Source: a virus (Duplodnaviria > Caudoviricetes). Taken from it: 36,295 nucleotides of DNA. The notes beneath the pieces were generated by a model. The model did no database searches and was not told the DNA's origin. It worked only from the letters and a program-made list of their open reading frames with translations. The DNA lies in IMG/VR virus record IMGVR_UViG_3300046779_000312, positions 1 through 36,295 of that record; one strand, given 5' to 3'. Within the stretch, counting starts at the first letter, position 1, and every line of letters begins with the position of its first letter. A program made the position numbers and the translations under genes. Shown here piece by piece: positions 3,349 through 36,295 of the stretch.

Positions 3349-3356
3349 TATTTATT
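3349..3356 (-). promoter_or_regulatory. T4-type late promoter (AATAAATA) for the baseplate genes
   Basis: Reverse complement of TATTTATT is a 7/8 match to T4 late consensus TATAAATA, about 22 nt upstream of the ATG at 3326. Confidence 0.6.
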
Positions 3357-3383
3357 GACTTTAAAATCTGCGTATATTATAAT
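3355..3383 (+). promoter_or_regulatory. Sigma70-type promoter for the gp55-47-46 operon
   Basis: TTGACT (3355-3360), 17-nt spacer, TATAAT (3378-3383); Shine-Dalgarno GAGGAG at 3391-3396. Confidence 0.75.
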
Positions 3384-3407: not shown

Positions 3408-4238
3408 ATGAAAAAAGTTAACTACCTAAACAATAAGGATTTGCTGGCAGAAATCCATCGTTCAAAGAACACTTATTGTAGTTTTACCAAGCCAGAATAT
3501 CACCAATATGATATCATTTTACCAAGTTTAGAAAAAATAAACATTAGGTCAATTGCCGAAGCAAAACGTAATCGTGCTAAACGTATGGCACAACAAGCAT
3601 TTGAAGCGGCAAAAGCAGAAAATCTTAAAGTCAAACTAGCAGAATTTGAAGTCGATTATAAGACTATTGAAAAAACCGACGTAGTGTTCCGTATCATGAC
3701 CTACGATCATATTCCTTTAGAACCCGGGCGTAAACGCACACCTAAGTCCGCGGCAGATCATAGAGAAAAAGTAAACTTCCCTGCGTTCCAACATTGGAAA
3801 TTCGATGACAACGACGAACTAATATGTGTTGGAAAAAGTCATTGGAGGGGTGGAATGAAAACTGGCAAGTTTTCAAAAGACCACGGACAGATTACAAACA
3901 ACCTAGCTCGCATGTACATTAAACTTTGCGAACGATATGCTACTAGAGGCAACGTCAGAGGTTATACCTACAACGACGAAATGAAGGGGCAAGCAATCCT
4001 TCAACTTACACAAATTGGACTACAATTCGATGAATCAAAAAGTGATAATCCTTTCGCATATTTTACCGCCGCGGTTACTAACTCGTTTGTCCGTGTCATC
4101 AATATCGAAAAGAAAATGCAAAACATCAGAGATGATATCTTACAAGAAAACGGCATGAACCCAAGTTACACTCGTATGATTAACCAAGAATACGATAATG
4201 CTATGAAAAGAGAGAATACACCGGTAAGTGAGGATTGA
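3408..4238 (+). CDS. gp55: RNA polymerase sigma factor for late transcription (T4 gp55-like)
   Basis: N-terminal NYLNNKDLLAEI and C-terminal YTYNDEM...FDESKSDNPFAYFTAAVTNSFVRVINIEKK are characteristic of gp55; it precedes gp47/gp46 as in T4. Confidence 0.85.
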   Translation: MKKVNYLNNKDLLAEIHRSKNTYCSFTKPEYHQYDIILPSLEKINIRSIAEAKRNRAKRMAQQAFEAAKAENLKVKLAEFEVDYKTIEKTDVVFRIMTYDHIPLEPGRKRTPKSAADHREKVNFPAFQHWKFDDNDELICVGKSHWRGGMKTGKFSKDHGQITNNLARMYIKLCERYATRGNVRGYTYNDEMKGQAILQLTQIGLQFDESKSDNPFAYFTAAVTNSFVRVINIEKKMQNIRDDILQENGMNPSYTRMINQEYDNAMKRENTPVSED

Positions 4239-4264
4239 CCTTGCATACAAATGTATGCTATAGT
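4235..4264 (+). promoter_or_regulatory. Possible internal sigma70-type promoter with an inverted repeat in the spacer
   Basis: TTGACC (4235-4240), 18-nt spacer, TG-c-TATAGT (extended -10, 4256-4264); GCATACA-AA-TGTATGC at 4243-4258. Confidence 0.45.
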
Positions 4265-4284
4265 CATAGGTATAAAGGATAATA

Positions 4285-5289
4285 ATGTTTAAAAAAGTTG
4301 CTTGTTTTACAGACATACACTTTGGTTTGAAATCTAACAGTCTTGTGCATAATCAAGACTGCGAAGACTTTGTAGATTGGTTTATTGCAGAGGCCAAAAA
4401 AGAAGGATGCGATACTGGTATCTTCCTCGGCGACTGGCACCATAATCGAAACAGTTTGAATATGCTTACACTAATGAGCAGTATTCGCAGTCTTGAAAAG
4501 TTAGGTAAAGCATTTGACAATTTTTATTTCTTCCCTGGCAATCACGACTTGTATTATAAGGACAAGCGCGATGTCCATTCTATTGAATGGGGTATCCATA
4601 TACCTGGTGTAACTATTGTTCGAGACATTACAACTATTGGAGATACTACACTCGTTCCTTGGTTAGTTGGCGAAGAGTGGAAGAAGATGGAAAAATTAAA
4701 GAGCCGTTATGTATTTGGACACTTTGAACTTCCGTTGTTTCAGATGAATGCTATGGTAACTATGCCCGATCACGGAGAGTTGCAGGCACATCATTTTAAA
4801 AATCCTGAATATGTATTCTCAGGACACTTCCATAAACGTCAAGCCAAGCAGAACATTGTCTATATCGGCAATGCGTTTCCGCACAACTATGCAGATGCTT
4901 GGGACGATGACAGGGGTATGATGATTTTAGAACACGGCGGTAAACCGGAATATCGCGTGTGGCCCGATGCTCCTAAGTTTAGAACTGTAAAACTAAGTCA
5001 ACTTATCGACGATTCAGAAAACATTATCAAAAGCAAGACTTACTTAAGAGTAGGTATTGACATTGATGTTAGTTTTGAGGAAGCAAGTTTTATTAAAGAA
5101 ACATACATGGCGCAGGATAACGTTAGAGAACTAACGCTAATTCCTGAAAAGAAAGATGTAGAGATTAACACAGACTTAGATGTAGAGCAGTTTGAAAGTG
5201 TTGATCAAATTGTTAGCAATCAAATCGCAAGTATTCAAAGCGATGCATATGACCCTAAGGTGCTGTTAGCCATTTATAATAACTTATGA
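4285..5289 (+). CDS. gp47: Recombination endonuclease subunit, Mre11/SbcD-like metallophosphoesterase
   Basis: Motifs DIHFG, GDWHH, GNHD, GHFE and SGHFH. Confidence 0.92.
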   Translation: MFKKVACFTDIHFGLKSNSLVHNQDCEDFVDWFIAEAKKEGCDTGIFLGDWHHNRNSLNMLTLMSSIRSLEKLGKAFDNFYFFPGNHDLYYKDKRDVHSIEWGIHIPGVTIVRDITTIGDTTLVPWLVGEEWKKMEKLKSRYVFGHFELPLFQMNAMVTMPDHGELQAHHFKNPEYVFSGHFHKRQAKQNIVYIGNAFPHNYADAWDDDRGMMILEHGGKPEYRVWPDAPKFRTVKLSQLIDDSENIIKSKTYLRVGIDIDVSFEEASFIKETYMAQDNVRELTLIPEKKDVEINTDLDVEQFESVDQIVSNQIASIQSDAYDPKVLLAIYNNL

Positions 5290-7067
5290 TTAGAATAAAA
5301 GATTTAACTGTAAAAAACTTCATGAGCGTAGGCAATGCTACGCAAGCAGTAGACTTTGGTAAAGAGCAACTTACACTTGTGTTAGGTGAAAACTTAGACC
5401 AAGGTGGCGACGACTCTGGTTCCCGTAACGGTACAGGCAAAACTACGATTGTTAATGCCTTAAGTTATGCCCTTTACGGACAAGCATTAACTAATATTAA
5501 GAAAGACAATCTTATCAATAAAATCAATGGTAAGAACATGTTAGTTACTGTTGAGTTTGAAAAAGATGGAAAACTATATCGCATTGAACGCGGACGCAAG
5601 CCTAATGTCTTAAAGTTTTATATCGATGAACAAATTGTCGAAGACGGAGATGTTGAAGACGAAGGTCAAGGCGATAGCAGAGAAACACAAAAAGATATCG
5701 ATGAACTCATCGGAATGAGTCACGATATGTTTAAACACATCCTAGCATTAAACACTTACACAGAGCCGTTCTTGTCCATGAAGGCAAACGAGCAACGTGT
5801 TATCATTGAACAACTACTTGGTATTACTCTGCTATCGGAAAAAGCAGAAAATCTCAAAGAGCAAATTAGAATTACCAAGGATGAAATTGTTCAAGAAAGT
5901 GCCAGAATTGATGCTATCAAAAAAAGCAATGACAAAATTCAAGAAAGCATTGACAGTTTAAAACTTAAACAAAGTGCATGGCAACGACAACGCGATGCTG
6001 ACATTAGTAAAATACAAAAAGCAATCGACGAACTTGCTGGAGTAGATGTTGATAGCGAAATTGCACAACACGAGCTAGTAAAAGTCTATGACGAGCAAGC
6101 GGCGTTGATTAAAAGCCTAAACAAAGAAAAAGCAACTTTAGAAACTGCACTTATGCAAGCAGATAAGACAGTTCAAAAGTACAAAAAAGAAGTAGAACGC
6201 TTAGAACATAAAACTTGTCCAGCGTGTGAACAAGAGTTACACGACCATAAGCATGAAGAAATGGCTAAGACTGCACAAACACATCTAGACGAAGCAACAA
6301 TTTATCTAAACAATGTTGCTACACAACTAGAAGCCATACTTCACGAACTAGCAACCATTGGCGACATTAATGGTCGCCCTAATACATTCTATGATACACT
6401 AAACGAAGCATACAATCACAGAAGTAATTTAGAGAGTTTAGCAATTCAACTTAAAAACAAGCAGGACGAAACAGATACGTATCAAGAACAAATTGTAGAA
6501 TTAGAAAATACTGCTCTACAAGAAGTCACTTGGGACGCCGTTAACAGTTTAAATCTAATGAAAGAACATCAAGAGTTCTTATTAAAACTGTTGACGTCAA
6601 AAGATTCGTTTATTCGTAAGAAGATCATTGACCAGAATCTTGCTTATTTGAATAATCGTCTCACTTACTACCTTGATAAGGTGGGTCTACCTCACACCGT
6701 TGTATTCCAAAATGACCTGACGGTAGAAATAACCCAACTCGGACAAGATTTAGACTTCGATAATCTGAGCCGAGGAGAAAGGAATCGCTTAATCTTAGGA
6801 TTATCATGGGCATTCCGCGATGTCTGGGAGTCGTTATACCAGAACATCAATCTCTTATTCATAGACGAACTTATTGACAGCGGCATGGATGCTAATGGCG
6901 TTGAAAATTCTTTAAGTATTTTGAAAAAGATGGCTAGAGAACGCAATAAGAACATCTATCTAATTTCTCATAGGGATGAATTAGTGGGTCGAGTGAACAA
7001 CGTGCTCAAGGTAGTAAAAGAAAACGGGTTCACTAGTTACGCAAACGACGTAGAAATATATGACTGA
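5286..7067 (+). CDS. gp46: Recombination endonuclease ATPase subunit, Rad50/SbcC-like
   Basis: KNFMSVGN, Walker A NGTGKTT, coiled coil with CPAC zinc hook, signature LSRGE, Walker B LFIDE, H-loop ISH. Confidence 0.93.
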   Translation: MIRIKDLTVKNFMSVGNATQAVDFGKEQLTLVLGENLDQGGDDSGSRNGTGKTTIVNALSYALYGQALTNIKKDNLINKINGKNMLVTVEFEKDGKLYRIERGRKPNVLKFYIDEQIVEDGDVEDEGQGDSRETQKDIDELIGMSHDMFKHILALNTYTEPFLSMKANEQRVIIEQLLGITLLSEKAENLKEQIRITKDEIVQESARIDAIKKSNDKIQESIDSLKLKQSAWQRQRDADISKIQKAIDELAGVDVDSEIAQHELVKVYDEQAALIKSLNKEKATLETALMQADKTVQKYKKEVERLEHKTCPACEQELHDHKHEEMAKTAQTHLDEATIYLNNVATQLEAILHELATIGDINGRPNTFYDTLNEAYNHRSNLESLAIQLKNKQDETDTYQEQIVELENTALQEVTWDAVNSLNLMKEHQEFLLKLLTSKDSFIRKKIIDQNLAYLNNRLTYYLDKVGLPHTVVFQNDLTVEITQLGQDLDFDNLSRGERNRLILGLSWAFRDVWESLYQNINLLFIDELIDSGMDANGVENSLSILKKMARERNKNIYLISHRDELVGRVNNVLKVVKENGFTSYANDVEIYD

Positions 7068-7287: not shown

Positions 7288-7302
7288 GCGGTATATATGT
7301 GC

Positions 7303-7737
7303 ATGTCATGGCACTATAATAACGTTTTAGTCGAAGAACTTCCCGAAGATTGTATTGGTTTTGTCTATATCATTACTAATAAAGTCACAGGCAGAAAGTA
7401 CATAGGCAAAAAACTAGCCAAGTTCTCAAAAACTACCTACAAAGTACACAAATTAAAAAACGGCACAAAGAAAAAGAAGCGTATTCGCACTAAAGTCGAC
7501 AGCGACTGGAGAGAGTATTACGGTTCTAATGATCAATTAAACAAAGACGTAGCAGAGTTAGGCACAGACAACTTTCACAGAGAAATATTGTTTTACTGCA
7601 AGAGTAAAGCAGAGTGTAGTTACATAGAGGCTCGAGAACAATTCACACACAAAGTCCTAGAATCTGACGATTTCTACAATGGTCATATTCAAGTTCGTGT
7701 ACATGGCTCCCATATAAAGAAACTTTTACAAGGCTAA
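7303..7737 (+). CDS. Small stand-alone GIY-YIG family nuclease
   Basis: GFVYIITNKVTGRKYIGKK (GIY...YIG), later YYGS, a candidate catalytic Glu in YIEAREQF, and FYN. Start could be 7297 or 7303. Confidence 0.8.
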   Translation: MSWHYNNVLVEELPEDCIGFVYIITNKVTGRKYIGKKLAKFSKTTYKVHKLKNGTKKKKRIRTKVDSDWREYYGSNDQLNKDVAELGTDNFHREILFYCKSKAECSYIEAREQFTHKVLESDDFYNGHIQVRVHGSHIKKLLQG

Positions 7738-7744
7738 TCAATAC

Positions 7745-8238
7745 GGTTAAAGCTCGCGCAGGCTAATTTCGTGCGCCCTAATCTCTGGTGATGTCGCAGA
7801 GCGTGGAAGTCTTTTTGCCGTAAAAAGCACTTAGCAACTATCCTTAACAGGACGATGATCGGATATGCCTATGAACCGGTTTTGCTATTTTAAGAGTGAG
7901 GAAAGGCTAAAGGATGTGGACATAAAACGTGATCCACACGGTTATTATACAAGATAGCGTTTGTATATTAATCCGCCGTTGTAATAAGACGGAACGAGCA
8001 GGTACCGGACAACCGCCTGTGCTATTGTTTATAGTAAATTATAGACAATTATAGTTCTAACGCTGTGTGACATTGTGCAACTCAGATAATGCCAATACTT
8101 TCGCCCGCCAGGGCGAAGTGTGACTGAACAATCTAGATAATACTTAAACTGCTTCGCAGTTAATAATGCTCTATCGTTAAGAAAGAAAGAAATAGTTCGA
8201 GCTGAAAGCGAAGAACAGATGAACGTAGTTCATCTTTG
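7745..8238 (+). ncRNA. Putative large structured non-coding RNA (family not recognised)
   Basis: About 500 nt with no ORF in the track, in an otherwise gene-dense genome. At least 12 stem-loops are visible by eye, several with G-U pairs that form only on the + strand. Confidence 0.6.
8217..8237. terminator. Hairpin between convergent transcription units
   Basis: AGATGAAC-GTA-GTTCATCT followed by a short T run; lies just beyond the stop (8243) of the minus-strand ORF. Confidence 0.45.
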
Positions 8239-8242
8239 AGTA

Positions 8243-8473
8243 TTAGAAGAAAGGTAATCCTGATTTCTTAGTAGTTTCAAGATTATCCTTGATTATTTCC
8301 GATATGATTTCACGATCTTCGTATGTAAGGGCAAATGCATCGTCGATAGTAATACTACCACGCATGTACCAGCACAATTTGAATAATTCAGTTCTTACGG
8401 ATTTTGCTTCTTTATCGAGCCCTTCAACTTCTCGTAGTGCCTCTTCGAGTGTTAGATTGAAGAGCTTTACCCG
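8243..8473 (-). CDS. -1 frame extension of the gp26-like chaperone (gp51-like / gpT-like segment); alternatively a 40-aa ORF from ATG 8365
   Basis: Not in the ORF track. Open frame RVKLFNLTLEEALREVEGLDKEAKSVRTELFKLCWYMRGSITIDDAFALTYEDREIISEIIKDNLETTKKSGLPFF* begins at the slippery heptamer T-TTT-TTC (8479-8473). Confidence 0.7.
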   Translation of the reverse strand, partial: RVKLFNLTLEEALREVEGLDKEAKSVRTELFKLCWYMRGSITIDDAFALTYEDREIISEIIKDNLETTKKSGLPFF

Positions 8474-9333
8474 AAAAAATTTGAAGCGTCTAGTCCTATA
8501 GGTGTTTCGAACTCAGCAGGCGCACCTTGCTCTTGTTCTTCTAATGTCGTTTGAACTTTAAAGGCAGGCATTTGGAACTTATCACGTTGCTTTTCTAAGT
8601 GTTCAATGATTGCAGTATAAAAGTCCTTGTCCGCATTATCAATAAATTCCTTAATGAATACAGGATCAGTAACTTCACCGTCAGGTGTTACTATCTTAAC
8701 TAAACTTCTAGAAACTGAACTAATTGTAATTTCGGTTAGTGCTTTAAAGCTCTTATTAAATTGAGCAATCTTTTGTTCTTCTGTTAACTCTTGACTGTTA
8801 ACAATATTAAAAATACGCTGTTCCTCTAAGCTCTTTAAACTACTTTGAGTAAATTCTTCGTAGTTTAACGGACGCAAGTAAGCAGTGATTTCGTCGTTGA
8901 TTTTAACTTCCGGATCAAATGTTGCACCTAACAGTTTGTCTAATGCTAATCTTAAGTCAGTAGTATATGTTTTGGTATTACTAGTTCCAGGAATAGTAAT
9001 ATCTACTTCAATTTGCTCGCCATATGTAGCAATACGTATAGCAATTAAAATAGCATCGATGTCAATACTAGGTACTGCCCAACCATTTTTAATATTAGGC
9101 ATACAACTTTGAATAACGTCAACTGTGCTTTGACCGTTTAGTAAAGCGTCGGGAGTTTTAATAGCAATTTCATCTCTAGCAGTCATAGCATACACAGGAA
9201 ACTCCATATTCTGTGTAAACTCTAGTGTTCCTGGTGGATAAAAATTACCAGAACTAGGCAACTTAACATAAAGTTTTGGTTGTCTGAAATACTTTTTTAA
9301 CGGGTTTTGTGGTACTGCTACTTGATTTTCCAT
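8467..9333 (-). CDS. Baseplate hub / tail assembly chaperone (T4 gp26-like)
   Basis: NPLKKYFRQPKLYVKLPS.G..Y, MTARDE, DIDAILIAIRIATYGE and C-terminal NFF resemble gp26-type hub assembly proteins; adjacent to the tape-measure-like gene. Confidence 0.7.
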   Translation of the reverse strand: MENQVAVPQNPLKKYFRQPKLYVKLPSSGNFYPPGTLEFTQNMEFPVYAMTARDEIAIKTPDALLNGQSTVDVIQSCMPNIKNGWAVPSIDIDAILIAIRIATYGEQIEVDITIPGTSNTKTYTTDLRLALDKLLGATFDPEVKINDEITAYLRPLNYEEFTQSSLKSLEEQRIFNIVNSQELTEEQKIAQFNKSFKALTEITISSVSRSLVKIVTPDGEVTDPVFIKEFIDNADKDFYTAIIEHLEKQRDKFQMPAFKVQTTLEEQEQGAPAEFETPIGLDASNFFG

Positions 9334-29439: not shown

Positions 29440-32400
29440 ATGGCTCAAGAGTTTAAAATTGGTAGATTGCGTTTTACATGGCGCGGACAGTGGGACAACA
29501 ACGTCGAATATAACAGAGACGCCGTAGTTCAATACGAGGGTAAATGTTATGTATGTAAATATCCTCATACAAGTTCTGCTACAGACTTCTACGAAGATTT
29601 GTATTACATAGCACAAAGTGGTGCAGATGAATCTCGCTGGACAATCATGCTAGATGGTAAAGCATGGAAACAAGATTGGACACCAAATACTTCTTACTCT
29701 TTAGGTAACATTGTTCGTTACGGCGGCGTTGTTTATGTTTGTATAGAAGCACATACTAGCGATCCAGATGCAATAGATCAAACTAAATGGGACGTTTATT
29801 CTCGATTCGATAATTGGACAAGTGCTTGGACTACTAGCACATTCTACGGTGAAAACGATATTGTTAAGTACGGCGGTATTGTATATCGTTGCGTGGAAGA
29901 CCATGAATCTACAACAACTGTATCATTAGGTTTAGAAGCAGATCAAGCCAAGTGGGAAGTTGTTAATGACGGATTAGAATATAGAGGTGAGTGGGCCGCA
30001 ACTACTCGTTATAAGAAAAACGATATTGTTAAGAGCGGAGCAGATGCCTACAAGTGTACACAGGGACATACATCTACTAGCACATTTGATGACACAAAAT
30101 TTAGTCTATGGCTACCAGGTGAAGAATATTACGGTACTTGGAGCAGTAGTGCCGTTTATCAAGAAGGCGATATAATCATTTATGGCGGATACTCATACAT
30201 GAGTATCATTCCAAATAACACAAATATTGTTCCGTCTACAAACGCTGAAGACAGTTCTTCAGCATGGGAATTAGTAACTAAAGGATTTAACACTAGAAAC
30301 GAATGGTCTTCTGGCCCGTACAAAGTTGGTGATATTGTTAGAAGAGCAGGACAATTATTTGCCGCTATTGCAGACAGTACAAGCGAAGATCCAACAGCAT
30401 TTTCTGTTTCAACAACATATACTGCTACAGGTAGTTCTGGAACAACTGTAAAAGTTGCAAGTTCATCTGGCGTAGTGCCGGGTATGATTATTCACGGATC
30501 AGGATTTACCTTAGGACAAACAGTTGTGTCTGTACAAAATAGTACAACAGTTGTTCTTGATAGAGCACCTGACGGTACTCCTACAGATAGTCAGATATTA
30601 AACTTCGTTGGTGTCAACTATACATATTGGAAGTTAGTAATTCCAGGCATTAACTGGAATAATTTCTGGGAAGCAGAAACATTATATGTTATCGGCGAAA
30701 CAGTTATTTGGCAAAACGCAACGTATCGTTGCACACAAACAATTCCTAACACAACGTCGGCTATTAGACCTGACTTAGATACTTCTAGTTCTTATTGGAC
30801 TTTATTGGCAGCTCATGATAGATTTAATGCCGGTAATACACAAGGAGATATTGTAACTAGAAGTGCAGACGAAGTAAACGTTGCTGTACCTATCGGCACA
30901 CAAGACTATGTACTAAGAGCCACTGACGGTACTCCGCAATGGAGGAAAATACAAGTAGTTCCAGATGTTTACTATGTTGCTCCAGAAGGCATTGACAGCG
31001 CAGACAGAGGAGATACAATAGATAAGCCATGGGCATCTATCAAGTACGCTTGCGAAAGAATTGCACAAGGATCGTTAAATCAGAATGCAAATACTTTACT
31101 AGTTGAAAATAAAGAATGGCTAGTAGAAGAAATGTATCAATGGATGCTATATCAAAAGCAAGAGTCTAACAGTCCATTTAATCCAGCATCTGAGTTTGAT
31201 GAGTTTTCAACTAGACGAGATGCAAGATTAATCATTGATGCATTATCCTATGATATTACTCGCGGAAGTAACAGTCGTATTGTATATGCTACACAATCAT
31301 ATTTTGCTGACAACAGCGACACATCGTTTTATAACGAAGAAACAGATGCCGCACAAGCATTTATTGTTGCTAGTTTAGAATTCTTAACAACACTAATTGG
31401 AAATGCATTAAATCAAACTACACCAGCAGACAGTTATCAAGAATTAATGTCTGTTCCTGAGATTGACAGATTATCTCAATATAAGAACGCAGGAATTTCT
31501 ACTGAGTTAAATGCTTATGTAGAAATTCAAAGTCTAATGGACTTAGTTATCAACGCAATCGATGTTGCTAATAAGAAAACATTGCCCTTGCCAAACGATG
31601 GAATTACTTCAACTGTTATGGTAAAGACAGGAACATACTCGGAACAGTTGCCTATTATTGTTCCAGACAATACTGCAATTAACGGAGATGAATTGCGCGG
31701 TGCAGTTGTGCAACCTGCAACAAGAATTGTAACATTTGCAACAAACGTATATGAATCTACTAATGAAATTGGAGTATATTCTGTAGCAGGTATGGAAGTA
31801 GATATGCCAATACAAATGAAGGCTCCTACAACCAATGATCAATTTAGTAATATTACAGAAGCACAAACATATTATATTGCTTCTATTGACGAAGTTACAA
31901 ATAGAATTACAATCTCGGAAACTGTAGGCGGAGCAGACTTTGACATTGATGCTGACGATTCAGGATTCATGGATGTGTATGCTGGAGAGTGCTTAAAGGA
32001 TATGTTCTATGTTCGTAATGCCACAGGTATTCGTAACATGACACTAACAGGCCTGGCAGGTTTCTTAGGACCGATTAACTCATTTGGTACACGCAGACCA
32101 ACAGGCGGCGCCTATGTTAGTTTGGATCCAGGCACTGGTCCAGACGACACAACAACATGGATTCTACGTAGAAGCCCGTATATTCAAAACGTTACAAACT
32201 TTGGTACAGGTTGCGTAGGTATGAAAATTGACGGTTACTTGCACAACGGCGGTAACAAATCGATTGTGTGTAACGACTTTACACAAATTTTAAGCGACGG
32301 TATCGGTGTGTGGTGTGTAGGTCCTGACTCGTTAACTGAGTGTGTGTCTGTGTTCGCATATTATAACTATGCTGGATACTTTGCTGAAGACGGTGGCCGC

Positions 32401-35400
32401 ATTCGTGCTACTAACGGTAACAGTTCCTATGGTTCTTATGGTGTTATTGCTGAAGGGTTTGACGCTACAGAAATTCCTATCACAGGAAAAATTGACAACC
32501 GTTCAACACAAGTACAGGCAGATGTACAAAGTGCATTTGGTACTAGTGCTGAATTATTATCAATGCAATATAACAATGCAGGTTCAGGATATTTTGAATC
32601 TACAACAAATATGTTGTTACACAGTAATAACTTTATCGAGAGCGCATGGGTTACCGATGGTAATGTATTAATTCAACAAAACAATACAGCACCTAATGAC
32701 CAAACAACAGCGTGGACGTTTACTGGAACAACTTCAAGTTCTGATTCTAGTTACATCTATCAAAACGTATCTATACCAGTTGCCGGTGAAGAATATACAG
32801 CGTTAAGTTCGTTGAACGTTACTGGTAGCGGAAGCAGTGCAACATTTGATATTACAGTGGGTGCAACTTCTTATAGCGCAGTTGTAAACGACGGCGGCAG
32901 CGGCTACGTTGTTGGTAATCAATTGCGAATTTTAGGAAGCCAACTAGGCGGTGTAGACGGAACTAACGACTGTTTCTTAGAAGTACAAAGTTTGTCTGGA
33001 AGTTCTATTTTAACTGTAACTGTTACAGGAACTGTACCACAAGGTTCTGCACAAGAATATACATTGAGCATTTATGCAAGACAAGGTACAAGTACTTCAT
33101 TTGACATGAGTGCTATCTTTAGTGGTAGCTCAACATGTACAGCAAATGCAAACTTTAACTTTGAAAATGAAACATTTACAACATTTGTAACTGGCGCTAC
33201 AGGAACTGTTACTACAGGAAAGTTAGAATTGCCTAGCGGTTGGTGGAGACTTTGGATTACAGTATATGATTATAATGCTCTAAATAACCAAGTACAGTTT
33301 AGAATTTATCCACGTGGTAGAACAGGTAATGCTGGCTTTACAAGATACTATGGCGCACAAGTACAAATAGCAAGTTCTCCAACTTTCTATTTAGAAACTA
33401 ACTCTAACAAGTTTTCAAGTTATGCAGATTACTTTGTTACTGGCGCAGGAACTGGCGCAGAGCTTATTGGTGACGAATTAAGAAGCGGTGCAGTATTCCA
33501 AACACGTATCACAGATGAAGGTACTGGAACAGGTGGTAGAGGATACTTAGTTGCAAGTAATAACGCACAAGGCGGTAACGACGAATATGTTATCCTTGCA
33601 GGATCCAATACTAACACAGAAAACCAACTTGTTGGAATGCGTGTATTCTTACAAAGTGGTACGGGTGCAGGCCAGTACGGTTATATCAGCGCATTTGACG
33701 ATGCCGTAACTAAGACTGCCCAAGTATTAAAAGAATCTTTTGAACCATTAGTTATTACAGCAACTGATAACAGTACTAGCGAGTTTACAATTTCTGGCGG
33801 TACCACAGATCATTTCTATGTAGACCAATTAGTTCAGTTTATACCAACTTACTATACAACAGAAGTAACTCAAACATCTACAGAAGAATTAGATGTATCT
33901 GCTACACTGGGCGGAACTGATAATAAAATTACAGTTTTAAGTACAGCAAAATTAGAAGCCAACATGACTGTTAAATTTACAGGAAGTATATTTGGCGGAC
34001 TTACAGACGAGTACACATATTACATTAAAGAAGTTGTTAACAGCACACAATTTAGTATTACTACAGAACCGTTTGGAAATGTACAACAACTAGTGGATGC
34101 GTTTGCAACACCGACTCAAATTATGAAGGTTATTTTCCCTTCATATACAAGTTATATTAATGCTAATACATCAAACATGTTAGTTAACATGCCCATCTCT
34201 TTCACAGGTACATCAATGGGTGACATTGACGTGGGTACAACTTATTATGTTAACGATGTTATTGATGGTTCGACATTTACAATTAGTTCAACTTTAGTAG
34301 AATTAAACGCTACAGCAACTCAAGCAAGTACTAATTACATCACAACTTCAGGAACATCTAATTTAGTATCAATGAATCCAATATTGTTCTCTGGTACAAC
34401 AATTGGCGGATTAGTTGCTGGAACAAAGTACTATATTAATAAAATTATTAACAGTACACAGTTTACTATCACAGATACTATTATTGAAACTACAGCATAT
34501 GAAACAGCAGAGATTACAAACTTGATTACTGTTGATTCTACAACAGGCTTCATTGCTAATAATCCAATTAAATTTGTTGGAAATACTTTTGGTGGTATTG
34601 TAAACAACACAATTTATTACATCCTTGCGATTAACGATGCAACAACATTTACTATAAGCACTACTCCTGGCGGGTCTGCTGTTATTCTTTCAGCAGGAGC
34701 AGGAGAAGTTAGCGTACAAACAACCGACGCACCATTTACTTTAACAACTGCAACAGGAACAGTAGCCTTAGCAACTACTAACACAAGAACTTCCTTAAAC
34801 TTTGGACAAGGAAGTATGATCGGCACGTTCCAAACTAAGTTGTTTGGTAATGTTGTTAAAGGAACAACTTATTACATTAAAGATATTGTCGATTCGACAC
34901 ACTTTACTGTAACAGCAACATTGGGTGGTAGCACCGCAGTTACTTTAAAAACTGATACAGGGTCTATGAACGTCGGTGCAGTTGGCTGGGATCATATTAA
35001 CCCAGGTACTCCTATCGAATCAACTTTAGATAATTCTACAGTTTATTACGTTGAACCAAGAGTTAAGTACTCGGATCCAACATTTACACAATCGAGCACT
35101 ACATTGCCAACACAATCTATAGGCACTACATGGTCCGCGATTGGATACGGTGATGGAACATTTATTGCAATTCCAAGTAACTATGCAACTGCGGCAAGAA
35201 GCACAGATGGCGAAACATGGACGTCTGTAACCCTACCAGATACAACTAACTGGGCAGACATTGCATACGGTAATAATTATTGGGTTGCTATTTCAGAAGA
35301 AGTTGCATTAGATAGTACACCGAATACAGTGGCTTATTCCAATTCTAATGGATTAGGATGGAGAACTTCTACCCTTCCTTCGTCGTCTGCATGGAAAAAA

Positions 35401-36295
35401 GTAGTGTACGGCAACTCAAAATTTGTTGCTATATCTGGTAGTTCTTCATATACATTTAAAGAACTTTCAGGAACAAATGTTTCAGGAACAGGTGTTGGCG
35501 CAACATTTAATGTCAGTGTAATTAATGGTGACTATACAGTTACATTAGTTAATACAGGATCGGGATATTCAGTATCGAATCAAATTAAGATTTTAGGTAC
35601 TGCATTAGGAGGCACAAGTCCAACAAACGATTTAACTATTACTGTTGCAACGCTTACATCAACAGCATTACCTCCTGCATCTACTACAGGTATCGAGACT
35701 GTAACAATATCTGGCACAGGTGTAAACTCTTCAGCATCAGCATACTCTACTAATTATGGATCTGCGTGGACTGCTGGAACCGGCTTACCAAGTGCAAACT
35801 ATACAGGTTTAACTTACGGACAAGGCAGATTTGTTGCTGTATCAAATGGCGGATTTTACTCTGCGTTAAGTGCTACAAACGTAACTGCAACCGGTTCTGG
35901 AGCAAAATTTAATGTTACAAAAACTGGTAGTACTTATACTGTTTCTGTAGCCAACGGCGGCACAGGTTACTCTGCAGGCCAAACATTAAAAATTCTTGGA
36001 ACAAGTTTAGGCGGATCTACTACAGCAAATGACTTGTCTATAACAATTGACACAATGCAGTCTGGACTAGGAGCAGATCCTACAGCAATCGCTACAGTTA
36101 CTTTTACTGGAACTGCGGTATCTAATACAGCGGCTTACAGCGATGACGGCATCACATGGACCTCAACCACATTGCCTACTACTAGTACATGGAGTGATGT
36201 AACTTTTGGTTCTGGATTATTTGTTGCAGTATCTAGCGACGATGCTAAACCAATATACAGTAGAGATGGCATTACATGGTATGAGTCATTGATAA
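29440..36295 (+). CDS. Giant multidomain virion fibre/adhesin (>2285 aa), truncated at the window end
   Basis: Absent from the ORF track because there is no stop in the window. ATG 29440 reads MAQEFKIGRLRFTWRGQW...; it contains CBM5/12-like repeats (W....Y..GDIV.YGG..Y.C), a beta-helix region and Asp-box motifs S.DG.TW, and is still in frame at the last bases (..SRDGITWYESLI). Confidence 0.85.
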   Translation, partial: MAQEFKIGRLRFTWRGQWDNNVEYNRDAVVQYEGKCYVCKYPHTSSATDFYEDLYYIAQSGADESRWTIMLDGKAWKQDWTPNTSYSLGNIVRYGGVVYVCIEAHTSDPDAIDQTKWDVYSRFDNWTSAWTTSTFYGENDIVKYGGIVYRCVEDHESTTTVSLGLEADQAKWEVVNDGLEYRGEWAATTRYKKNDIVKSGADAYKCTQGHTSTSTFDDTKFSLWLPGEEYYGTWSSSAVYQEGDIIIYGGYSYMSIIPNNTNIVPSTNAEDSSSAWELVTKGFNTRNEWSSGPYKVGDIVRRAGQLFAAIADSTSEDPTAFSVSTTYTATGSSGTTVKVASSSGVVPGMIIHGSGFTLGQTVVSVQNSTTVVLDRAPDGTPTDSQILNFVGVNYTYWKLVIPGINWNNFWEAETLYVIGETVIWQNATYRCTQTIPNTTSAIRPDLDTSSSYWTLLAAHDRFNAGNTQGDIVTRSADEVNVAVPIGTQDYVLRATDGTPQWRKIQVVPDVYYVAPEGIDSADRGDTIDKPWASIKYACERIAQGSLNQNANTLLVENKEWLVEEMYQWMLYQKQESNSPFNPASEFDEFSTRRDARLIIDALSYDITRGSNSRIVYATQSYFADNSDTSFYNEETDAAQAFIVASLEFLTTLIGNALNQTTPADSYQELMSVPEIDRLSQYKNAGISTELNAYVEIQSLMDLVINAIDVANKKTLPLPNDGITSTVMVKTGTYSEQLPIIVPDNTAINGDELRGAVVQPATRIVTFATNVYESTNEIGVYSVAGMEVDMPIQMKAPTTNDQFSNITEAQTYYIASIDEVTNRITISETVGGADFDIDADDSGFMDVYAGECLKDMFYVRNATGIRNMTLTGLAGFLGPINSFGTRRPTGGAYVSLDPGTGPDDTTTWILRRSPYIQNVTNFGTGCVGMKIDGYLHNGGNKSIVCNDFTQILSDGIGVWCVGPDSLTECVSVFAYYNYAGYFAEDGGRIRATNGNSSYGSYGVIAEGFDATEIPITGKIDNRSTQVQADVQSAFGTSAELLSMQYNNAGSGYFESTTNMLLHSNNFIESAWVTDGNVLIQQNNTAPNDQTTAWTFTGTTSSSDSSYIYQNVSIPVAGEEYTALSSLNVTGSGSSATFDITVGATSYSAVVNDGGSGYVVGNQLRILGSQLGGVDGTNDCFLEVQSLSGSSILTVTVTGTVPQGSAQEYTLSIYARQGTSTSFDMSAIFSGSSTCTANANFNFENETFTTFVTGATGTVTTGKLELPSGWWRLWITVYDYNALNNQVQFRIYPRGRTGNAGFTRYYGAQVQIASSPTFYLETNSNKFSSYADYFVTGAGTGAELIGDELRSGAVFQTRITDEGTGTGGRGYLVASNNAQGGNDEYVILAGSNTNTENQLVGMRVFLQSGTGAGQYGYISAFDDAVTKTAQVLKESFEPLVITATDNSTSEFTISGGTTDHFYVDQLVQFIPTYYTTEVTQTSTEELDVSATLGGTDNKITVLSTAKLEANMTVKFTGSIFGGLTDEYTYYIKEVVNSTQFSITTEPFGNVQQLVDAFATPTQIMKVIFPSYTSYINANTSNMLVNMPISFTGTSMGDIDVGTTYYVNDVIDGSTFTISSTLVELNATATQASTNYITTSGTSNLVSMNPILFSGTTIGGLVAGTKYYINKIINSTQFTITDTIIETTAYETAEITNLITVDSTTGFIANNPIKFVGNTFGGIVNNTIYYILAINDATTFTISTTPGGSAVILSAGAGEVSVQTTDAPFTLTTATGTVALATTNTRTSLNFGQGSMIGTFQTKLFGNVVKGTTYYIKDIVDSTHFTVTATLGGSTAVTLKTDTGSMNVGAVGWDHINPGTPIESTLDNSTVYYVEPRVKYSDPTFTQSSTTLPTQSIGTTWSAIGYGDGTFIAIPSNYATAARSTDGETWTSVTLPDTTNWADIAYGNNYWVAISEEVALDSTPNTVAYSNSNGLGWRTSTLPSSSAWKKVVYGNSKFVAISGSSSYTFKELSGTNVSGTGVGATFNVSVINGDYTVTLVNTGSGYSVSNQIKILGTALGGTSPTNDLTITVATLTSTALPPASTTGIETVTISGTGVNSSASAYSTNYGSAWTAGTGLPSANYTGLTYGQGRFVAVSNGGFYSALSATNVTATGSGAKFNVTKTGSTYTVSVANGGTGYSAGQTLKILGTSLGGSTTANDLSITIDTMQSGLGADPTAIATVTFTGTAVSNTAAYSDDGITWTSTTLPTTSTWSDVTFGSGLFVAVSSDDAKPIYSRDGITWYESLI

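Follow-up and report, generated by a model that had tools for sequence, protein, structure and literature searches.

A gene-free gap in a freshwater jumbo phage contains a conserved, pseudoknotted element of about 390 nt (positions 7752-8141, + strand), predicted by sequence comparison to be an RNA, which by analogy with plasmid ColE1 would on balance appear to be an RNA-primed replication origin. The 3' two-thirds of the element are undescribed and carry an unusual, testable signal, a pair of same-sense repeats. The window, i.e. the whole stretch of 36,295 nt analysed here, is an entire record and represents a 36-kb fragment of a T4-like phage genome.

The late sigma factor of the fragment is nearest to those of Pseudomonas phage PA5oct and its relatives (48%), followed by those of Phosso and the Rak2-like E. 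coli phages. The gene order is gp55-like (late sigma factor), gp47-like (SbcD) and gp46-like (SbcC) genes (3408-7067, + strand; PHROGs 12791, 100 and 77), a gene for 75 amino acids, a GIY-YIG gene (7297-7737, + strand), the gap, a convergent baseplate-hub gene and the portal, protease and capsid genes. The best sigma-70-like promoter match, TTGACT-17-TATAAT (3355-3383, + strand; 11/12, a consensus match only), heads the gp55-gp47-gp46-75aa-GIY-YIG operon 4.4 kb upstream of the element and is, judged from sequence, the likely source of a transcript ending in the RNA. No strong promoter was found immediately 5' of the element in this locus. The sequence-only reading had called the gap the sole long one free of ORFs, and this holds: other gaps between long ORFs are at most 151 nt, and positions 8243-8497 are occupied by a minus-strand frame. 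At the end of the baseplate-hub gene (8467-9333) a T-run lies just before the stop and a second frame runs on without a stop for 84 residues, up to 8243-8245 (- strand), which makes the region 8243-8497 (- strand) a candidate programmed frameshift. No tRNA or tmRNA was found.

The eleven stems named in the sequence-only reading were all found in the sequence, and the + strand folds better than its shuffles (-142 kcal/mol, z -3.78, 0/100 shuffles as good), with a z of -1.37 for the - strand. Mutual information in 81 type-A sequences (86 filtered at 92% identity) recovered the local stems together with long-range pairings at 7957-7959/8061-8063, 7980-7981/8010-8011 and 7992-7994/8055-8057. In a 37-sequence alignment the 83 named pairs are 80.6% paired, compared with 68.9% for shuffles and 38-42% for slid controls; 56 of them change on both sides, and pairing reaches 100% and 97.8% in the two core pseudoknots. 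Helices 10-13 of the core are 98-100% paired. Two stems proposed earlier, CCGTT/GACGG (7976-7992) and CGG-ACAA-CCG, are not conserved pairings, as covariation joins 7978-7982 with 8009-8013, and 7992-7994 with 8055-8057; the hairpin at 8024-8049 exists but is an optional insertion found in a minority of relatives. The argument for a + strand molecule from G-U pairs was borne out for part of the gap: over the 81 type-A elements, G-U pairs outnumber A-C mismatches 113 to 21 in the body and 13 to 0 in the inter-repeat hairpin, while the last hairpin is balanced (6 and 6). The RNA was therefore placed at about 7752-8141 and the tail treated as strand-neutral. In three sequencing runs from the same study, consulted for expression, there were only short contigs of relatives, two of them on the element, and strand and ends are not readable from these.

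Several parts can be told apart in the gap. The first (7751-7890, + strand) corresponds to the Polynucleobacter-1 domain, RF01718, and includes a small 5' pseudoknot (7752-7754/7761-7763). It is followed by a double-pseudoknot core (7915-8064, + strand), comprising a hairpin (7946-7967) whose loop pairs with about 8061-8064, the pairings 7978-7982/8009-8013, 7992-7994/8055-8057 and 8000-8002/8016-8018, and the optional hairpin 8024-8049. The third part consists of two repeats (8065-8090 and 8118-8141, + strand) on either side of a G+C-rich hairpin (8100-8117, + strand), the latter indicated by covariation and the G-U counts. The last is an A-rich tail (8142-8240, either strand) with three short hairpins, the last of them strand-neutral; candidate roles are an unwinding element, DNA hairpins or a two-way terminator. 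The tail is only mildly A+T-rich, at 0.64 overall and 0.69 over 8142-8195, against 0.61 for the whole window; the first 60 tail bases average 0.66 in 157 elements.

The match to RF01718 (97.3 bits, E 5.5e-20, gathering threshold 37, model positions 1-141 of 141) is the sole significant one in Rfam, with none to ROOL, GOLLD, OLE, ARRPOF or EGFOA. Fold, covariation and G-U counts support the earlier proposal that a big phage encodes a large, structured + strand RNA, with the qualification that its 5' third had already been catalogued; its novelty fails for the first 140 nt and stands for the structure that covariation carries on to about 8141, beyond that model. Polynucleobacter-1 was described as probably an RNA, probably cis-regulatory and of ambiguous riboswitch status (Weinberg et al. 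2010, PMC2864571, Table 1). The model covers about one third of the element, and the double-pseudoknot core and the repeats fall outside it. No function for it has been reported since 2010 in the literature searched; the motif is discussed in Additional File 1 of the 2010 paper, which may mention neighbouring genes. The main text of the 2017 motif paper (PMC5737381) mentions neither GIY-YIG nor Polynucleobacter, and no description of the element was found in the literature on GIY-YIG proteins, ncRNAs, jumbo phages, origins or R-loops. A supposed link between EGFOA and GIY-YIG genes is absent from the text consulted, and EGFOA was set aside.

Classification by eye of the best 80 GIY-YIG loci revealed the same 5' domain directly behind the gene in 48, with two more cut short, a different 5' domain (type B) in 16, a third kind in one and another gene in 11; the remaining two have no downstream DNA. 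Types A and B have in common a GGTACCGG..CCGCC core, and types A, B and C all have the repeats and the tail. The 3' end is retained behind unrelated, structured-looking 5' domains in type B and its variants (L003, L009, L043, L047, L085 and L092) and in type C (L015). The 5' domains of types B and C are candidate new motifs; 12 type B, type C and cultured loci gave no Rfam matches. Searches of cultured phages and plasmids by blastn with the window's element, and likewise with a type B element, returned nothing. Among genome contigs there were 14 matches, six of them due to chance and eight true elements on MAG contigs, the long ones of which have phage gene order; copies in satellites or chromosomal islands were not confirmed.

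The signal on which the proposed function turns lies in the repeats. Repeat 1 (8065-8090) consists of GTGTGAC (8065-8071) and box 1, AGATAAT (8084-8090), and has a linker of variable length. Repeat 2 (8118-8141) consists of GTGTGAC (8118-8124) and box 2, AGATAAT (8135-8141), lies at a fixed distance from the hairpin and would provide both the RNA 3' end and the DNA target. Three strong covariation signals, 8084/8135, 8088/8139 and 8090/8141, are identities and not pairs. The 7-nt boxes are identical to each other in 157/157 scored elements, which use 10 words (161 distinct elements were collected; three truncated ones and the degenerate L029, whose boxes are mismatched, were left out). The search patterns partly constrain box positions 2-4 and 6 and leave positions 1, 5 and 7 free; letters at the variable positions are divided 80/77, 87/70 and 121/33/3. 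Positions 1, 5 and 7 have switched at least 15, 7 and 8 times, respectively, on an RNA tree built without the box columns, and 23, 15 and 10 times on a GIY-YIG tree (FastTree). The upstream TGAC, about 10-12 nt 5' of the box, co-varies too. No complementary partner for the boxes inside the RNA was present among the top 70 covarying pairs.

Mismatches between the boxes are rare and biased in direction. Complete scans of viral contigs found G in box 1 with A in box 2 at 13 loci, in about 4-6 lineages by eye, and the reverse at none. Two real elements with A in box 1 and G in box 2 were found in metagenome contigs, a collection in which the opposite class was not counted, and the G/A rule is therefore a bias only. 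At position 5 neither class of mismatch is seen in viral contigs, even though a wobble ought to be acceptable at that place. Upstream of the boxes, TGG in repeat 1 with TGA in repeat 2 occurs in 6/157 contexts and the reverse in none. Where repeat 2 has TGG (120 loci, 53 contexts, read by eye in 47/64 parts of the collection), repeat 1 has TGG in 45 contexts, AGG in two, TGT in four and something else in two, and never TGAC in register. If box 1 of the RNA pairs with the strand complementary to box 2, the G1/A2 state leaves a G-T wobble, and an A-C mismatch arises in the reverse state. Local folding of the four A/G states did not single out the missing one.

The centre of the hairpin is 26.1 +/- 0.6 nt from box 2 and 20.9 +/- 3.0 nt from box 1 (157 elements), a pattern that suggests a fixed target and a tethered invader. 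The repeat flanks are invariant yet unlike each other (ACTC and ATCT). The same-sense, co-varying repeats and the wobble bias mean that an upstream RNA segment matches a downstream template segment, to which it would pair. A helix of box 1 with the ATCT-box 2 region was considered and rejected, being broken in L017 and L015 and not an energy outlier. The boxes were also rejected as -10 promoter elements, because words like GATGAA, GACGAA and CGTCAAG do not preserve the consensus.

Probable homologues occur in cultured phages. Sequence of the PBECO4 syntenic gap recurs in 73 records, almost all of them from Rak2-like phages and mostly with 4-5 matching places per record. PBECO4 itself has dispersed copies at 38, 94, 195 and 305 kb, co-oriented along the strand that carries most genes; three of the four have a TATAAT -10 match, and CGTCAA is common to all four. 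The PA5oct copies lie at 13, 76 and 246 kb. In 13 Rak2-group copies, whose topology was read with positional anchors, the parts have the same order as in the window: a hairpin loop pairing downstream, a second pseudoknot and twin boxes. The first pseudoknot is 7/7 Watson-Crick in 12 of the 13, with six letter variants among those 12, and the second joins CCG plus four bases with four bases plus CCCGC, in three variants. Twin boxes follow 16-19 nt past the first pseudoknot in all 13 copies (19 nt in the window), and a script found a -10 match upstream of 11.

One PA5oct copy coincides with an RNA detected by RNA-seq, ncRNA004 (246116-246734, +; Lood et al. 2020, PMC7318152, Table 1), which appears in the consulted text of that paper without a structure or function. 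It makes up 0.08/0.03/0.02% of phage reads, highest early, while PA5oct ncRNA001 and 002 account for about 1-5% (PMC7318152). The RNA starts about 20 nt behind TTGACA-17-TAAACT and is a paralogue of the syntenic PA5oct gap, with both pseudoknots, one of them lettered as in the freshwater member L036, and a twin box. Unlike the window element it is about 620 nt long and has its own promoter and another 5' domain. The published 3' end falls at 246734, the final base of box 2, CATAAG (246729-246734). This CATAAG twin was chosen from the alignment before coordinates were compared and is only 6 nt long, and the published end was drawn from short-read coverage.

The PBECO4 and PA5oct copies go undetected by both a sequence profile and a covariance model built on the freshwater family, so homology with the cultured copies rests on synteny and hand-read topology; given also the short twin and the short-read boundary, it is probable and not proven. 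In Phosso a 1-kb gene-free syntenic gap lies between Holliday-junction resolvase and RNase HI genes (L204:8760-9770, 229.8-230.8 kb). The core motif was not found in this gap and Phosso is therefore not counted as a member. In the syntenic region of Atu_ph07 no clear element was found. Tiny hypothetical CDSs are annotated over the element in cultured phages (L304:957-1109, L307:562-1217, L201:6705-7517 and L308:659-1163) and are probably false genes.

These observations can be joined in a model of replication initiation. A structured replication origin had been the main alternative in the sequence-only reading, and it is the explanation preferred here. Positions 7752-8141 would form the 3' end of the gp55-gp47-gp46-GIY-YIG transcript, and the folded core would display repeat 1 as a pair of short strands, one being TGAC and the other the 7-nt box, separated by about one helical turn. 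During passage of RNA polymerase these strands may invade the template strand at repeat 2, giving a persistent R-loop on the RNA's own template from which phage DNA replication would be primed. Whether formed directly or by RNase processing, an RNA 3' end lying at or close to box 2 would be extended by the T4-like replisome, and the tail would open for loading of helicase and primase. It is likely from the comparisons that the RNA pairs back on its own DNA via the repeats; the role in replication is drawn from the likeness to ColE1 RNA II. The origin reading is supported by the identity and joint switching of the boxes, the G1/A2 bias, the spacing fixed for repeat 2 only and the topology conserved in cultured copies. 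Several co-oriented, promoter-led copies and a rare early transcript ending at box 2 would fit an origin primer.

Other observations count against an origin or give no sign of one. GC and AT skew, uninformative here, track the gene strand and do not switch at the element in 4/4 genomes, and classical RNase H (PF00075) was found in two of five genomes, not in the two freshwater ones or PA5oct. To these are added the lack of an absolute mismatch asymmetry, the empty position 5 and the mild A+T content of the tail. On the supporting side, the competing mechanism of DRT2-like template jumping predicts the opposite wobble bias and was rejected on this ground and because reverse transcriptase (PF00078) was found in 0/5 related genomes, the window itself being only a 36-kb fragment.

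The closest mechanistic likeness is to ColE1 RNA II, whose rG stretch, lying upstream, hybridises to a run of dC in the template strand; the hybrid persists and is cut by RNase H to form the primer (PMC4412123). Like RNA II, the element would be a folded transcript in which an upstream segment matches a downstream template segment. The words of the element, however, are mixed-sequence, two-part and lineage-variable, the host is a jumbo phage and no antisense like RNA I was seen; the likeness is one of mechanism, and no sequence or structural homology is claimed. T4 has at least five origins, two of which were shown to work by R-loops (PMC3016281). Of these, oriF and oriG are of about 100 bp and consist of a middle promoter and an A+T-rich unwinding element, with R-loop formation that is sequence-independent (PMC3016281). 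As in the proposal made here, they belong to a T4-like phage, are driven by promoters and occur several to a genome; they differ in having neither a large RNA fold nor matching repeats. ARRPOF RNA (Weinberg et al. 2017, PMC5737381; PMC12990946), of about 255 nt and pseudoknot-rich, lies in a gene-free region needed for replication, but belongs to a Fusobacterium plasmid and has no Rfam match here.

The literature searched offered no description of replication initiation in Rak2-like and PA5oct-like jumbo phages, and the T4 review names the rules for R-loop formation at a phage origin as an open question (PMC3016281). The element is a defined origin candidate in phages that grow on laboratory hosts. 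If the origin reading is true, it would also yield origins specific to a phage, of use in engineering plasmids and genomes, as well as a natural RNA able to target double-stranded DNA via a short two-part match. A wider proposal is held only tentatively and is more doubtful than the origin itself: that a widespread T4-like jumbo-phage clade, including cultured E. coli and Pseudomonas phages, may start replication from several copies of a pseudoknotted RNA with a rewritable two-part guide, which invades its own DNA without a dedicated protein. If the fold itself invades or makes the primer end, the RNA would be a self-targeting RNA device whose specificity is reprogrammable by changing both repeats.

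The same repeat evidence is compatible with an R-loop that serves another purpose, either to end transcription of the operon or to open a site at which gp46/47 and the resolvase next to it would initiate recombination-dependent replication or repair. This explanation is unlikely, if the best placed of the rivals. The syntenic copy is always behind gp46/47 and beside a GIY-YIG, EndoVII or PD-(D/E)XK nuclease gene, and the end of ncRNA004 at box 2 would suit it. The extra copies in PBECO4, PA5oct, BF and K64-1, however, are far from gp46/47 and behind promoter-like sites of their own, and so have no operon to terminate, and a knotted fold of 390 nt is elaborate for a terminator.

Less probable still is that the repeats are tandem sites, iterons or RNA boxes, for one phage protein, the whole perhaps still being an origin or a regulator. 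The two-part form with about one helical turn between the parts would suit a protein, as would the one word common to all PBECO4 copies and the near-invariance of box positions 2-4 and 6 in the freshwater family (partly fixed by the search pattern), and T4 oriE has iterons (PMC3016281). Base pairing nevertheless fits better with frequent joint switches that leave almost no mixed states, and with a one-way G/A bias where a protein would accept both letters. Invariant but differing flanks and a spacing fixed for repeat 2 only also speak against protein-read sites. No residue of the GIY-YIG protein, the sole protein compared, predicts the box word (best normalised mutual information 0.26-0.32).

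A free-standing, trans-acting ncRNA, acting as a scaffold, oligomer or ribozyme in the manner of ROOL, GOLLD or ARRPOF and using the repeats for maturation or antisense pairing, is quite improbable. The ornate fold with its invariant core, the promoter-led copies and the discrete PA5oct transcript are what such an RNA would show, and the wobble bias is blind to whether the partner is template DNA or an antisense RNA. Yet ncRNA004 is rare, unlike ncRNA001 and 002, the boxes lack a covarying partner among the top 70 pairs, and same-sense repeats are unable to pair with each other.

The sequence-only reading had proposed a nuclease-plus-RNA particle, and for this the neighbouring gene is informative. 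It encodes a 146-aa, single-domain SegE-type GIY-YIG protein (PF19835, E 5.8e-33; phrog_447), a minimal nuclease with a Lys-rich insert and no sequence relatives in the PDB at E <= 1. The element begins 0-50 nt past the GIY-YIG stop, and gene and element are probably co-transcribed. Among the 69 element-first loci with enough upstream DNA (51 others are too short), 53 have the gene next to the element, 11 have it at a greater distance behind intervening genes, and in five it was not found within 2.5 kb; it thus lies within 2.5 kb upstream in 64/69. PA5oct, PBECO4 and Phosso lack the gene, and their syntenic gap is adjoined instead by EndoVII, a RusA-like nuclease or a Holliday-junction resolvase. 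The protein family occurs in 541 cultured-phage records, of which the only carrier inspected, Melnitz, has a 148-nt gap with no profile match to the element. HEARO/omegaRNA with IscB likewise places a structured RNA beside a small nuclease gene; the element differs in having no variable guide, no fixed nuclease partnership and no signs of mobility, its locus being fixed between core genes and its sequence constrained throughout the alignments. A ribonucleoprotein of this kind is thus very improbable, and by these comparisons the element is independent of the nuclease gene, a usual but replaceable neighbour and not a required partner.

Several minor observations concern the genes and contigs around the element. 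In PHROGs and many GenBank records the GIY-YIG family (7297-7737) goes under the name 'NAD synthetase', apparently a misannotation of the GIY-YIG domain that has been passed on. Contigs with the element that resemble jumbo-phage DNA have been binned into bacterial MAGs (L290 and L292, Haliscomenobacter; L297, Bifidobacterium), and in L290 radical-SAM genes separate gp46 from the GIY-YIG gene. Two elements lie away from gp46 and the hub gene and are possibly second copies, as in PBECO4: L085:2438-2607, among a DNA polymerase III alpha fragment, an exoribonuclease and a Tad3-like gene, and L112:2468-2629, near WYL-like, winged-helix and carboxypeptidase genes. At the far end of the window, positions 29440-36294 encode a tail-fibre-like protein that exceeds 2,285 aa and contains five CBM5/12 carbohydrate-binding modules.
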